From the NCBI RefSeq assembly GCF_041248615.1, contig NZ_CP158426.1: a stretch of 64,000 nucleotides of DNA; one strand, 5' to 3'. The notes below the pieces were generated by a model that saw nothing but the letters and a program-made list of their open reading frames with translations, searched no databases and was not told where the DNA came from. Both the position numbers and the translations under genes were made by a program. This document shows positions 46,770 through 51,351 of this stretch, piece by piece; the first letter of the stretch is position 1; each line of letters opens with the position of its first letter. The DNA comes from Escherichia coli. Lineage in GTDB: Bacteria > Pseudomonadota > Gammaproteobacteria > Enterobacterales > Enterobacteriaceae.

Positions 46770-47695
46770 GTATTCGCATAATCCCGCAAGATGAGCTGGG
46801 TTCGAGCGAGAAACGTACGGCGGATATGATTCCGCCGTTATTGTTCCCTCGGCTCAAGAATTTATACAACCGCCGCGCCGAGCGTCTGCGCGAGCTGGCA
46901 GAAAATAATCCGCTGGGTGATTACCTGCGCTTTGCTGCGCTTATCGCCCACGCCCAGGAAGTGGTGCTGTACGACCATCCGCTGGAGATGGATCTGACTG
47001 CACGCATTAAAGAAGCCAGCGCACAGGGCAAGCCCCCGCTGGATATTCACGTTCTGCCGCGTGATAAGCACTGGCAAAAGCTGCTGATGGCGCTAATTGC
47101 TGAGCTGAAACCTGAAATGAGCGGCCCGGCGCTGGCAGTGATTGAGAATCTGGAGAAGGCATCGACTCAGGAGCTGGAAGATATGGCCAGCGCACTGTTT
47201 GCCTCTGATTTCTCATCCGTCAGTAGCGATAAAGCGCCGTTTATCTGGGCTGCACTGTCGCTCTACTGGGCGCAGATGGCCAATCTGATCCCTGGCAAAG
47301 CCCGCGCTGAATACGGCGAACAACGTCAATATTGCCCGGTATGTGGCTCTATGCCTGTTTCCAGCATGGTGCAAATTGGCACCACTCAGGGTCTGCGTTA
47401 CCTGCACTGCAACCTGTGTGAAACCGAATGGCACGTAGTGCGCGTAAAATGCAGCAACTGCGAGCAGAGCGGCAAACTGCATTACTGGTCGCTGGATGAC
47501 GAACAGGCCGCGATTAAAGCCGAAAGCTGCGATGACTGCGGCACTTACCTGAAGATTCTTTATCAGGAAAAAGAACCGAAAGTTGAAGCCGTGGCAGATG
47601 ACCTCGCCTCTCTGGTACTGGACGCGCGAATGGAGCAAGAAGGCTATGCTCGTAGTTCCATCAACCCGTTCCTGTTTCCGGGTGAAGGGGAGTAA
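46766..47695 (+). CDS. fdhE: Formate dehydrogenase formation protein FdhE
   Basis: 309 aa with paired CxxC motifs ([27 protein letters not shown]). Confidence 0.95.
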
Positions 47696-47876
47696 TCTCT
47701 GACGTTTTCCGGGTGGCGCAGGTCGCCCGGATTACAGTTCATAGGGTGTGACGACACCATCTCTCTTATTCCGCGTTACCACCTCAAGCTATGCTGCCAG
47801 TGCCTGTTTTGCCTCAATTTTCACACTGAACAAATCGATAACAATATCGATATCAAATAGCCAAATCTTTTTGCCA

Positions 47877-48095
47877 TTACCATTCCTCGCGCAGCTTACG
47901 CTGGTATTCGACACCATCTTCCTCACTCCCTTGCCAGATGCCAAAAGCACTGGCTCTTGCTGTTTGCGATTGATTTACCAGGTATTGATCTACCGCTTCC
48001 CGTAATAGCTCCGCACGAGGAAGATTATGCTGCACCTCGAGATCATCAAGTTGCTTAAACAACTCATTCGATAAATTGAGTAAAATTCTGCCCAT
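47877..48095 (-). CDS. yiiF: Ribbon-helix-helix (CopG/antitoxin-like) small protein YiiF
   Basis: 72 aa from the ATG at 48095: [42 protein letters not shown]...; RHH pattern. Confidence 0.75.
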
Positions 48096-48337
48096 ATCTA
48101 TACCTGCCAGAGAGTTCATAAATATCTCGCCCATATCATTTTTGAATCTATGGAGAGAAAAGTACCCTTGTCGAATCTTTAAAGAAAGCGTATTTACGCA
48201 TCACTTTTTATTTTTGCGAGGCGTTTTCCAGATATGATGTAACAGTTGCAGTTATTATAAGTTCAAGTAAAACAGCCTTGTATTAATACCAGAATAAGGG
48301 CATCTGTTTTTTTATATTCAAGAATGAAAAATTTTTG

Positions 48338-48556
48338 TCATTCCTTATGCTCCTTACACTGATCATCAACACCAACTACCTCCCCCTTTTGCCTGCCTCC
48401 CTTTGCTTTACGCACCGGGAATTGCTGACGTTCCAGATATTGCTCTACCGCTTCGCGTAAAATTGCAGATCGTGAAACCTTACGCCAGCCCCTAAGCTTG
48501 TTCAGCCGTTTAATTGCCTCTTCTGATAAATGAAGAAAAACCGTATTCATCGCCAT
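48338..48556 (-). CDS. yiiE: Ribbon-helix-helix (CopG/antitoxin-like) small protein YiiE, paralog of YiiF
   Basis: 72 aa from the ATG at 48556: MAMNTVFLHLSEEAIKRLNKLRGWRKVSRSAILREAVEQYLERQ... Confidence 0.75.
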   Translation of the reverse strand: MAMNTVFLHLSEEAIKRLNKLRGWRKVSRSAILREAVEQYLERQQFPVRKAKGGRQKGEVVGVDDQCKEHKE

Positions 48557-48974
48557 TACCACCACCTTACATATATTACTCATTAATGTATGTGCGAAAA
48601 TTACGCCGAAAAATCATTTAAAAAAAGCGGATTTTTGCATGTCGTTTTGTTTTTGCGAGACGGCATCCAAAGATAATGTAACAGTTGCAGTTATTTCAAT
48701 TGTTACTCAAAAATGGTTTAGTAATAACCCAGGATGGTTTATTACTTTTAATTAAGCGGGGACACATCTACAGAAAAGAAACAACAAATAATAAGAATGA
48801 ATTATGGGTGCTATAAATATTTTATATTCAAGAATATTTTTTTGATTGGGTGTTCATTTGCTTCATCAGGATGGTGTACCCGAAAAAGTCAGCAGCTTTA
48901 CCGCACCAGGGTTTAAGGTGAAATCTACCATTCATAACTGACCGGTCAGTGCCGCACCAACCGGTCTTTAATTG

Positions 48975-49253
48975 TTAGTAGTAGTAAATTTGTGGATAAC
49001 AGTCCGGGAACCAGACGATTCCTTCTGGATCATCCCCCTGCATTACCCGATGACATTGGCGTCGATCATCTGCGCGACGGCGAAGCGTAGTATAGAGCCG
49101 CTTCCATTCATGATCGCCCGGTGTACTGTAGTTTACCCAACAATCCATTGAAGGGTGACGCCATTTACCTGTAAGTGTTGGGATCCCTGAATGATTATGT
49201 GGCTTCGCTTTACCATTACGATCCCTATCTTTACGCGTATTAAGCGTGGACAT
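48975..49253 (-). CDS. Hypothetical small basic His/Cys-containing protein (92 aa)
   Basis: ATG at 49253 preceded by CAGGAGACTAAAA (SD 8 nt upstream). MSTLNTRKDRDRNGKAKPHNHSGIPTLTGKWRHPSMDCWVNY...; no family recognised. Confidence 0.45.
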   Translation of the reverse strand: MSTLNTRKDRDRNGKAKPHNHSGIPTLTGKWRHPSMDCWVNYSTPGDHEWKRLYTTLRRRADDRRQCHRVMQGDDPEGIVWFPDCYPQIYYY

Positions 49254-49314
49254 TTTTAGTCTCCTGTTAAGAGTTCTAAAAATGTGCTTCCTTAAAATAG
49301 TTCATCATTTTCCC

Positions 49315-49527
49315 TTAATTCGCATAGCGTGCTTTTGCACGAATTTCCGATACGCGGGGACCATCATGATAGCGTCGATGCCCACACATCCAACAAGAAC
49401 AAATACAGGGAGTACGAAAGCAAATACCTGATGCTTTTTTGCTTCCATCGCCTGCAGTGCGATAACGGCAGCGGATTTTTTTTAATCGCGCCATATGATG
49501 GCGACGTTCAGCACGATTACGGGTCAT
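49315..49527 (-). CDS. Hypothetical small basic Cys-rich protein (70 aa)
   Basis: ATG at 49527 preceded by TCAGGAGTTTTACT (SD supplied by the R1 repeat hairpin). MTRNRAERRHHMARLKKIRCRYRTAGDGSKKASGICFRTPCICSCWMCGH...; no family recognised. Confidence 0.45.
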   Translation of the reverse strand: MTRNRAERRHHMARLKKIRCRYRTAGDGSKKASGICFRTPCICSCWMCGHRRYHDGPRVSEIRAKARYAN

Positions 49528-49532
49528 AGTAA

Positions 49533-49636
49533 AACTCCTGAGCAGGCGGCACTATGCCGCTTTCATAGGAGTTCTGAATGCTGGTGCTTTCTGTATGGCA
49601 TAACCATGCCTCTAACGGTTAAGTGCCTGCAGCACA
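49533..49636. repeat. ~104-bp repeat R1 (nested hairpin), direct copy of R2
   Basis: AACTCCTGAGCAGGCGGCACTATGCCGCTTTCATAGGAGTT... with outer stem AACTCCT/AGGAGTT and inner GCGGCA/TGCCGC; overlaps the 3' end of the antitoxin gene; ~85% identical to 51350..51453. Confidence 0.8.
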
Positions 49637-49902
49637 TGTTGCGGATCATTGGCAATCGCTCGCAGCAAAGCCTTTGCAGGCCCAGTCGGTGAACGTCGCC
49701 CCTGCTCCCAGTTACGCAACGTGTCTACGCTTACGGAAATAAGTTCGGCAAATTTAGATTGTGACAACCCTGAAGCGCGGCGTATTTCTTTGATTTTCAT
49801 AGCATCAACTTCAAAAGTCCGTGAAGGGTGTCGCGTTCCTTCAATAATTTCATTCATCTGGGCCATGCTGTGAGTCAACCGCTCAAAAAGTGCCTTATCC
49901 AT
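49612..49902 (-). CDS. HTH-XRE antitoxin (HigA-like), second gene of a toxin-first TA operon
   Basis: 96 aa; SD GAGGTGG upstream; start abuts the toxin stop. HTH segment IKEIRRASGLSQSKFAELISVSVDTLRNWEQGRRSPTGPAKALL. Confidence 0.8.
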   Translation of the reverse strand: MDKALFERLTHSMAQMNEIIEGTRHPSRTFEVDAMKIKEIRRASGLSQSKFAELISVSVDTLRNWEQGRRSPTGPAKALLRAIANDPQHVLQALNR

Positions 49903-50214
49903 TTACCACCTCGTATTTAACAACCGGAGCATTGCTTTTTCCTGGGGAGACAGATCATCTTTAATACCCTTACGATAAATAAGCAGTAATCTGATCTCAT
50001 AATGTTTAACCTGATGAAAGTAAATAACCCTGACACCAGCACGTTTCCCCTTTCCTCCTGACACCCATCGAACCTTTCTTAACCCACCAGTTTCAGGTAT
50101 TACCTCACCATAGTCAGGATTCAAGGCCAGGAAAAACTGAAAACGACTGAATTCATCGTCGGTCAGCAGTTTTTGAACATCTTCAGTAAAAATTTCCGTT
50201 TCGATGAAGAGCAT
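49903..50214 (-). CDS. RelE/ParE-superfamily toxin (HigB-like)
   Basis: 103 aa, MLFIETEIFTEDVQKLLTDDEFSRFQFFLALNPDYGEVIPETGGLRKVRWVSGGKGKRAGVRVIYFH...; resembles HigB-type toxins as recalled from memory. TATAAT sits immediately upstream of the ATG. Confidence 0.75.
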   Translation of the reverse strand: MLFIETEIFTEDVQKLLTDDEFSRFQFFLALNPDYGEVIPETGGLRKVRWVSGGKGKRAGVRVIYFHQVKHYEIRLLLIYRKGIKDDLSPQEKAMLRLLNTRW

Positions 50215-50430
50215 AATTATACGCCATTGGCTTAGAGTAACAATCCTTTTTGTACGTCATTGACGTACCCTTGAAACCACTAGCTTACTGATAGTGCTCC
50301 AGCAAAACCACGTCTCTGCCGGGTTTGTCTTTACATTTGCGAGGCGCTTTCCAGATTTTTCACGCCCGTGAATTTCCCTGTATCCATCCAGCAAAAACGG
50401 GTGTATAAAACTGTACATTCATACAGCAAA

Positions 50431-51351
50431 ATGAGTTCTACTATGGCACTGGAAAAAGGAATTGCAGAGTTAGTCGAAGAGTTTATCGCTGCGGGTCGCC
50501 CCTCATCGCGTCAACAAAGTATTGCGCAGCGCAGGGAGGGCTATATCGCCAGCGCTGTCCTTGCGGGTGAGACAGAAACGCGGGTAGATATTCAGACTAT
50601 CGAACTTGAAGGGATGATCTTACGAATAGTGTCACCGCTGAATGCCCCGACATTACTCCCGACGATAATTTATTACTACGGTGGCTGTTTTGTTAGCGGC
50701 GGGTTCGCAACTCACGACAACCAGCTGCGCCAGTTAGCCTATTACGGGCAATGTCGGGTTATTGCCGTCCAGTATCGGCTGGCACCGGAACAGACTTTCC
50801 CCGCCGCCCATGATGATGCGCAACGAGGTGCAGAATTAGTCTGGCAACACGCCGAACGACTCGGCGTTGATAAACAACGGATAACTCTTGCCGGTGACAG
50901 TGCGGGCGGACATCTGGCGCTGGTAACTGCTTTGCGATTAAAGCGTGCTGGCGAGTGGCAACCGGCACAACTCATCTTAATTTATCCCATGCTTGATGCG
51001 ACTGCGCATTTCGAAAGCTACATACGCAATGGTCACGATTACATCATCACACGCGACACTTTACTGAGCGGCTTTGAGATGTATCTGCCAGGCATTGAAC
51101 GCAGGCATCCTGAAGCCAGCCCTCTTTGGCGCGATGATTTCAATGGCTTGCCACCTGTACATATCATTACCGCTGAATACGACCCACTTTGCGATGAAGG
51201 TGAAGCGTTGTATCACCGCATGACAGGGCAAGGAGTGCAATGCACCTGCCAACGCTACCTTGGCGTTATCCACGGATTTTTTCAGTTAGGTGGTATCAGT
51301 GAGGCTGCGCGATCGGCGCTGCGGGATGTGGCCTGGAGAGCGGGAAGGTAA
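50431..51351 (+). CDS. Alpha/beta-hydrolase-fold esterase/lipase (HSL/Aes-like)
   Basis: Oxyanion-hole region YYYGGCFVSGG, nucleophile elbow GDSAGG, downstream catalytic Asp/His candidates. Start ambiguous: GTG 50368, ATG 50431 or ATG 50443, none with a clear SD. Confidence 0.7.
   Translation: MSSTMALEKGIAELVEEFIAAGRPSSRQQSIAQRREGYIASAVLAGETETRVDIQTIELEGMILRIVSPLNAPTLLPTIIYYYGGCFVSGGFATHDNQLRQLAYYGQCRVIAVQYRLAPEQTFPAAHDDAQRGAELVWQHAERLGVDKQRITLAGDSAGGHLALVTALRLKRAGEWQPAQLILIYPMLDATAHFESYIRNGHDYIITRDTLLSGFEMYLPGIERRHPEASPLWRDDFNGLPPVHIITAEYDPLCDEGEALYHRMTGQGVQCTCQRYLGVIHGFFQLGGISEAARSALRDVAWRAGR

Follow-up and report, generated by a model that had tools for sequence, protein, structure and literature searches.

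The esterase gene examined here lies on the plus strand of a 64,000-nucleotide stretch of Escherichia coli DNA (NCBI RefSeq assembly GCF_041248615.1, contig NZ_CP158426.1; hereafter the window), and several described systems stand close to it. In E. coli typing, the same gene serves as the TspE4.C2 marker of Clermont phylotyping (triplex 2000, quadruplex 2013), where it goes by the name of putative lipase esterase gene (PMC5322314). Among proteins of known structure, the family IV esterases Est8 (4YPV), LAE6 (5JD4), PestE (2YH2/3ZWQ) and EST2 (1EVQ) share its fold, its N-terminal helical cap, the GDSAG elbow, the DPLxDE acid and the HGF histidine, but they are merely 33-37% identical to it and carry HGGG where it has YGGC. 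The acetyl esterase Aes/YbaC of E. coli (4KRX; NF007547) belongs to the same superfamily and is of the same size (E 5.6e-29), yet it occupies a different locus and a separate clade. With regard to regulation, the operator of sulA, TACTGTACATCCATACAGTA, agrees at 17 of 20 positions with a predicted LexA box in front of the esterase gene, and this box lies on the predicted core promoter, an arrangement known from classical SOS genes. Taken as a whole, our best explanation, which we consider reasonably probable, is that the TspE4.C2 gene encodes an ancestral family IV esterase that is translated from the ATG at 50443 and is predicted to be under LexA control.

The identity of the gene with the phylotyping marker follows from the primers (sequences and 152-bp product size from PMC5322314, Table 1), all four of which fall inside the open reading frame (ORF) and delimit the published products. 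The PCR targets span 50480..50658 on the plus strand, with the 2013 quadruplex amplicon at 50480-50631 and the 2000 triplex amplicon at 50507-50658, each of 152 bp. In the 2013 pair, TspE4C2.2b matches exactly at 50480-50499 and TspE4C2.1b matches at 50612-50631 with one mismatch; in the 2000 pair, TspE4C2.1 is exact at 50639-50658 and TspE4C2.2 has two mismatches at 50507-50526. The coding sequence (CDS) was found in 2639 of 5426 complete E. coli genomes, always as a single copy of at least 95% identity. At least 80% of its length was covered in 2636 of the 2639 carriers, which disposes of the disruption in related strains that a first-pass annotation of this DNA had named as grounds for abandoning the gene. 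The one truncated copy that we inspected (H105) was set aside as an obviously chimeric assembly. TspE4.C2 has been scored in very many E. coli typing studies, and the gene model behind it is now fixed; the marker literature that could be searched treats it purely as a presence/absence tag, and searches of it returned nothing on its start codon, its YGGC motif, its synteny in other genera or a LexA box.

The gene occupies 50443..51351 on the plus strand (302 aa plus stop) and corresponds to the RefSeq 'alpha/beta hydrolase' WP_001306651.1, whose start in window coordinates is likewise 50443. The first-pass annotation had described a plus-strand ORF, and rightly so: the frame is uninterrupted to its end at 51351. 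The 6.1 kb around it (47700-53800) are 100% identical to E. coli isolate 362 (NZ_OW967178.1), and the exact 302-aa protein was found on at least 999 contigs. Three start codons are available, GTG 50368, ATG 50431 and ATG 50443, with anti-Shine-Dalgarno duplex energies of +0.4, +0.9 and -2.2 kcal/mol, respectively. Most neighbouring genes reach -3.5 to -11.3 kcal/mol, although dtd (-1.9) and the adjacent relE-like gene (-1.5) are equally weak. Thus, the earlier remark that no candidate start has a good Shine-Dalgarno (SD) sequence holds. The ambiguity that had been drawn from it does not, since comparison with orthologs settles the start on 50443. Nearly all of 120 close homologues begin with MALEKGI or a near variant at the equivalent position, and ATG 50443 is invariant in the aligned upstream DNA of eight lineages. 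The previously preferred ATG 50431 is not conserved even inside E. coli, being ATA in the marker-positive strain 2013C-3277 (locus L012), and GTG 50368 precedes the predicted -10 hexamer and LexA box. Comparative evidence therefore supports translation from ATG 50443, 12 nt downstream of 50431. In most other genera an SD of the type AAGGA (usually AAGGA or AAGGG) precedes the ATG by 6-9 nt; the aligned E. coli bases, at 50430..50434 on the plus strand, read AATGA (or AATAA). A single G-to-T change both abolishes this SD and gives rise to the in-frame ATG 50431, so that the start appeared ambiguous because the SD has been eroded by an E. coli-specific point change.

The protein matches Pfam Abhydrolase_3 (PF07859) at 5e-68, and its 126 relatives in the PDB are led by metagenomic and archaeal family IV esterases, with Est8 (4ypv) at 9e-50. 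An AlphaFold2 model built on 139 sequences reached a predicted local distance difference test score (pLDDT) of 96.9, with cap helices at 5-16 and 27-41, and Foldseek placed it at TM scores of 0.91-0.94 to LAE6, Est8, PestE and EST2. The nucleophile elbow G151-D-S153-A-G-G156 is encoded at 50893..50910, with S153 present in 138 of the 139 sequences and G151 and G155 invariant; Asp247 of the DPLCDE motif (51181..51183) and His277 of the IHGFF motif (51271..51273), both likewise on the plus strand, occupy invariant columns of the same alignment. By this alignment with conserved family columns, the residues of a Ser153-His277-Asp247 triad are present, and an absence of triad residues, which had been put forward as a reason to discard the esterase assignment, did not materialize. 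The hormone-sensitive-lipase (HSL) family and the GDSAGG motif at residues 151-156 were thus correctly recognized from the start, while the label 'Aes-type' has to be dropped: the protein scores 139 bits against the 389-bit cutoff of the Aes equivalog model and belongs to a distinct paralogous clade, so that TspE4.C2 is not an Aes ortholog. The top curated NCBIfam models are those of LipP1-type HSL (NF058653; 235 bits, cutoff 350) and of the chloramphenicol hydrolase EstDL136 (NF033149; 6AAE/6IEY; 162 bits, cutoff 500), both scoring so far below their cutoffs that no functional transfer is justified. Within the overall explanation given above, and with the same degree of confidence, we regard the protein as a probable cytoplasmic carboxylesterase of family IV (HSL type, GDSAG subfamily), which by homology would hydrolyse carboxylic esters through Ser153-His277-Asp247.

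The oxyanion-hole motif, Y79-G80-G81-C82 at 50677..50688 on the plus strand, departs from the canonical HGGG. The first-pass annotation had credited the protein with the oxyanion-hole motif of the HSL family, but the canonical form of that motif is not what the sequence shows. His occupies position 79 in 138 of the 139 homologues of the alignment, in 114 of 120 close matches and in each of the 45 species representatives whose ORF could be read; Tyr stands there in E. coli alone. Among 20 sampled E. coli alleles, 19 match YYYGGCF; the remaining allele did not fit the search pattern. Cys82 is common to all enterobacterial orthologs (HGGC), with HGGG found in more distant homologues, and the E. 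coli protein keeps the Gly-Gly core. In the esterase E53, the last two residues of the motif provide the backbone amides that make up the oxyanion hole (G90 and G91 of H88-G-G-G91; PMC8767022), and the comparison of LipN with LipW indicates that the positions of this motif matter to varying degrees (PMC10099132). By analogy, the oxyanion would be held here by the backbone amides of Gly81 and Cys82, and H79Y therefore need not abolish catalysis, though it changes a defining residue of the family.

The one unexpected trait of this gene lies in its upstream region. A predicted -10 hexamer, TATAAA (50404..50409, plus strand), whose TATAA is invariant in nine sequences from eight lineages, is followed directly by a predicted LexA (SOS) box, AACTGTACATTCATACAGCA, at 50409..50428. 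We scored this box with a position weight matrix (PWM) derived from the 18 LexA sites of E. coli given in Table 4 of PMC3009722, which themselves range from 13.2 to 28.2 bits. It reached 20.2 bits, in the manner of the sites of lexA, ruvA, cho and yebG; the next best site in the window reached 10.8 bits, and ten shuffles peaked at 7.8-13.8 bits. The promoter itself was inferred from cross-genus conservation: TATAA(A/C), one base and then CTGT-N8-ACAG recur across the eight lineages, with CTG and CAG invariant and the surrounding DNA diverged. Orthologous loci were fetched by protein identity, without reference to the LexA motif, and in seven of seven such loci from outside E. coli the top-scoring LexA site fell at the same offset, with 17.4-21.7 bits. 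A pattern scan of 100,044 species-representative genomes recovered the arrangement of -10, box and ATGGCNCTNGAA in 50 species of about 15 genera, at 14.1-23.1 bits (median 19.4). These span Citrobacter, Enterobacter, Klebsiella, Raoultella, Kosakonia, Lelliottia, Leclercia, Phytobacter, Superficieibacter, Trabulsiella, Franconibacter and Entomohabitans as well as Salmonella diarizonae and Escherichia whittamii. A 53%-identical esterase homologue from an unrelated context, taken as an outgroup, had no LexA site.

The predicted box begins at the last base of the conserved TATAA(A/C), which lies 34 nt before the ATG, and extends over the expected transcription start; repression usually has this geometry. 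LexA would therefore most likely repress the esterase promoter, with DNA damage inducing it as part of the SOS response. Our literature search returned no report linking LexA or SOS to this esterase, to fdhE or to TspE4.C2, and looking for the operator sequence itself or for comparative work on the SOS regulon likewise gave no relevant match; the operator is to that extent a new observation. We know of no esterase or other alpha/beta hydrolase in the described LexA regulon of E. coli K-12. Since K-12 is without the esterase gene, studies of its regulon could not have found the box.

The gene also keeps a constant place. In the window, it lies between fdoGHI-fdhE and fabY(yiiD)-dtd-yihY, and the order fdhE-esterase-fabY, with the esterase convergent with fabY, recurs in Enterobacter hormaechei, Citrobacter farmeri, Salmonella enterica subsp. 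salamae, Leclercia and Lelliottia aquatilis, and the same gene order in one further enterobacterial lineage. In a Superficieibacter-type contig the esterase again stands beside fabY, the stretch read there ending before fdhE. What varies is its company: a relE-like/nadS pair in Citrobacter and Salmonella, as in E. coli; a pair of ribbon-helix-helix (RHH) and PIN genes in Lelliottia and locus L006; HigB with a helix-turn-helix (HTH) gene in Superficieibacter; and none at all in Enterobacter. On these comparisons, the esterase is the constant feature of a slot that gathers toxin-antitoxin (TA) and other genes. Its GC content (53%) is close to that of fdhE (54.5%) and fabY (55%), the other genes of the island having 39-49%. 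The earlier view that the gene had been captured inside the island is thus contradicted both by its occurrence in the same slot in other enterobacterial lineages and by a base composition like that of its core neighbours. As part of the overall explanation, and at its level of confidence, the gene would be an ancestral resident of the fdhE-fabY interval in Enterobacteriaceae and not captured cargo.

Within E. coli, four types of locus can be distinguished. In type (i), one repeat copy is followed by nadS, the relE-like gene, the esterase and fabY, with a 64-nt spacer between the last two that holds a hairpin flanked by A and T runs. Type (ii), that of the window, was found in 320 genomes; here esterase and fabY are separated by a second copy of the repeat and a gene of 604 aa. 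Type (iii), represented by O157:H7, has one repeat copy, the 604-aa gene and fabY, without the TA pair or the esterase; this pattern of repeat and flank without the esterase CDS was matched in 764 genomes. In type (iv), that of K-12, the 604-aa gene is reduced to its first ~65 nt: a K-12-type locus (L018, 1682-2156) aligns with 53270-53748 of the window and keeps the upstream region and these ~65 nt as an annotated pseudogene. Alignment places the K-12 type as a derivative of the O157 type by a further ~2 kb deletion. The single O157 repeat carries a degenerate copy of the last nadS codons, which implies that the O157 lineage once had the module. In E. whittamii (L052, 3173-3400), the promoter, the LexA box and the first ~10 and last ~19 esterase codons are kept and joined by an internal deletion, which by its sequence is an independent loss of the esterase within the genus. 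Together, the O157 remnant and the E. whittamii scar lead us to read the absence of TspE4.C2 as loss, and E. coli lineages without the esterase would have lost it through deletion or replacement. The presence/absence polymorphism on which the typing scheme draws would thus be explained by an ancestral gene that was lost repeatedly along with a repeat-bracketed TA-plus-esterase module.

The repeats in question are 99 nt long with 89% identity (~105 nt with one gap). Copy 1 (49533..49631) comprises the last 19 nt of nadS and its 3' flank with a long hairpin, and copy 2 (51350..51448) starts inside the esterase stop codon and includes a degenerate remnant of the nadS 3' end. They are locus-specific rather than dispersed, occurring at no more than two places per genome, and the empty site of O157:H7 has one copy. 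The earlier statement that the esterase lies between two ~104-bp repeats is accurate as to the repeats, but they do not bracket the esterase alone: nadS and the relE-like gene are inside as well, the three forming a unit of ~1.7 kb. Of these companions, nadS (49612..49902, minus strand) encodes an HTH antitoxin-like protein that matches the NCBIfam NadS model at 60.4 bits against a cutoff of 60. The relE-like toxin gene (49903..50214, minus strand, divergent from the esterase) has a weak Pfam RelE match, is assigned to the RelE/ParE family by RefSeq in other strains and stands at the same position in Citrobacter and Salmonella salamae. The native 3' flank of the esterase shares 12 of 14 positions with the left end of the repeat (AACTCC.GA.CAGG). 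Two histories would fit: recombination that deleted the DNA between the two copies could have produced the O157 type, or joining at this microhomology could have produced the window type. The diagnostic positions in the O157 copy are mixed. An Rfam scan of 47600-53800 returned nothing credible, and the repeat is therefore not a known RNA.

Several points weigh against the overall explanation. The consensus promoter scan of the window did not call the esterase promoter, whose -35 is weak, and this -35, matching the consensus at three of six positions, suggests together with the weak SD that expression in E. coli is low. The scores of the 50 species are partly ascertained, since the scan required CTG-N10-CAG, and the independent evidence lies in the inner and flanking positions. 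The E. coli protein departs from the HGGG by which family IV esterases are recognized, and the substitution of Tyr for the family-conserved His may leave the enzyme impaired or altered. Synonymous divergence (dS) from other genera is saturated and above that of the flanking genes, so strict vertical descent is not proven; for the same reason, dS was unusable as a test of vertical against horizontal descent. The searchable literature contains no expression, LexA-binding or enzyme data for this gene.

These points give room to two competing accounts. In the first, the conserved palindrome would not be a working LexA operator: it would serve another regulator or reflect conservation of the promoter or 5' untranslated region, and the esterase would stand outside the SOS response. 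The literature search found no experimental support for a LexA role, CTGT-N8-ACAG alone is expected ~0.8 times per 64 kb by chance, and a second conserved element upstream, described below, means that other regulators probably act here. Against this stand the score of the full 20-mer, with three of 20 differences from the sulA operator, inner positions that follow the TA-rich pattern of LexA in the 50 species, and its rank as the top PWM site, at a fixed offset, in every orthologous locus. To our knowledge, no other enterobacterial regulator recognizes CTGT-N8-ACAG. We therefore rate this account as rather unlikely, though still the most serious competitor. A somewhat less probable account is that the E. 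coli gene is decaying toward loss, yielding little or no functional enzyme and keeping its ORF intact by inertia or hitch-hiking. H79Y, unique to E. coli among the 139 homologues, would fit this, as would an SD of AATGA or AATAA in place of AAGGA, the absence of the gene from 51% of complete E. coli genomes, the independent deletions in the O157/K-12 types and in E. whittamii, and a within-species dN/dS of 0.15-0.22, which is above that of fdhE and fabY (0-0.04). However, that same ratio differs from neutrality (p<0.005): alleles of different E. coli locus types show 4-9 non-synonymous and 8-13 synonymous codon differences, with N:S counts from 4:8 to 9:11, and non-synonymous changes are significantly under-represented between phylogroup alleles. 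Moreover, 2636 of 2639 carriers have the ORF at full length, and none of the annotations sampled flags it as a pseudogene; every E. coli allele examined retains the triad, GDSAGG and the LexA box; and it is backbone amides further along the motif, rather than the His side chain, that build the oxyanion hole (PMC8767022). We thus rate a functional but down-tuned or altered gene above a decaying one. The E. coli lineage thus shows three weakened features, namely the SD (AAGGA to AATGA), the -35 and the oxyanion His (now Tyr), yet purifying selection on the gene persists.

A third account, which takes up the first-pass annotation, has it that the esterase is horizontally acquired cargo that acts with the phosphatase-like 604-aa neighbour on lipids, the one on acyl chains and the other on head groups. 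In this strain the two genes stand side by side, direct repeats flank the module, and the neighbour carries the octapeptide CKSAKDRT, which is the catalytic CX5R motif of the mammalian inositol polyphosphate 4-phosphatases INPP4A/B (PMC3248162). Their distribution speaks otherwise. Both genes occur together in 320 of 5426 genomes, as compared with ~2300 that have the esterase alone and the 764 with repeat and flank only; O157:H7 has the neighbour without the esterase, most esterase carriers are without the neighbour, and the esterase is syntenic in genera where the neighbour is missing. The neighbour (39% GC, against 53% for the convergent esterase) is restricted to E. coli and Shigella, apart from one 73%-identical metagenomic sequence. 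The proposed link between the two genes thus falls away, and the cargo account, largely refuted by distribution, is very improbable.

Returning to the explanation that we prefer, an ancestral esterase under predicted LexA control, its reach depends on the operator. The gene was already known as a marker, and its product is an uncharacterized member of a well-known enzyme family; nothing lifts it above the ordinary but the conserved, predicted SOS operator and Tyr79, which is specific to E. coli. That Enterobacteriaceae carry a conserved, unrecognized SOS-regulon esterase of family IV, missed because K-12 deleted it, is a proposition to which, from comparative sequence evidence, we would give even chances. 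If it is true, the enzyme could be a DNA-damage-induced detoxifying or remodelling hydrolase, acting for instance on an ester-containing genotoxin or antibiotic. Half of E. coli, along with many Klebsiella, Enterobacter and Citrobacter species, would then possess an SOS-inducible esterase that is missing from the K-12 model, and TspE4.C2 would mark the presence or absence of an SOS function, in an E. coli variant with Tyr for the family-invariant oxyanion-motif His. If the SOS reading is wrong, the gene is one more uncharacterized family IV esterase.

The second conserved element, TTTGCGAG-N4-CTTTCCAGA (50336..50356), lies ~105 nt before the ATG and is present in all nine aligned sequences, with one mismatch in Enterobacter (L009). 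It has a strict match in 23 of the 50 species and near variants in many others. Paralogous copies at 48213-48233 and 48652-48672 stand upstream of yiiF and yiiE, including in K-12. Read on the minus strand, the element is CTGGAAAG-N4-CTCGCAAA, with a -24 TGG and a -12 GC at canonical spacing. This resembles the -24/-12 consensus of sigma-54 promoters and would point away from the esterase. The sole literature match for yiiE was a table of RpoS sites from systematic evolution of ligands by exponential enrichment (SELEX).

At the 3' end of the gene, the esterase-fabY spacer of strains without the 604-aa gene (L011, 3910-3972) contains a hairpin, GAAAAGGTTTTCAGATTGAAAACCTTTTC, between runs of A and T; from its sequence it looks like a bidirectional terminator between the two convergent genes. 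In the window strain, this hairpin is replaced by repeat copy 2 and the 604-aa gene, which leaves the esterase there without a canonical intrinsic terminator, and a consensus terminator scan called none for it in the window.

The 604-aa gene itself occupies 51520-53334 on the minus strand. Its ORF is listed as 51520..53364; ATG 53334, preceded by an AAGGAGG SD, is the probable start of the gene. RefSeq splits this ORF into a 304-aa 'transposase', a name without domain support, and an N-terminal pseudogene. Searches of Pfam, NCBIfam and PDB sequences gave no matches for the protein, tblastn found no match to plasmid-borne ipgD, and its AlphaFold2 model was unusable (pLDDT 38.6). It may be a phosphoinositide phosphatase of the SopB/IpgD kind.

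The remainder of the fdhE-fabY gap is a hotspot for TA and accessory genes. The esterase was described earlier as the only plus-strand gene of the island, and this is correct for the annotated genes between yiiF and fabY. The minus-strand genes yiiF (47877-48119) and yiiE (48338-48556) are CopG/RHH paralogs whose upstream regions are 81% identical over 79 nt (repeats 48178-48256 and 48617-48695). In some strains a VapC toxin gene follows yiiF (H35), and other inserts in the same interval include DUF6708, a ClbS/DfsB-family gene and insertion sequence elements. Two small minus-strand ORFs at 48975-49253 and 49315-49527 (92 and 70 aa), annotated as hypothetical, had no Pfam or NCBIfam matches; the region of the former is ~76-78% identical in the O157 and K-12 types.

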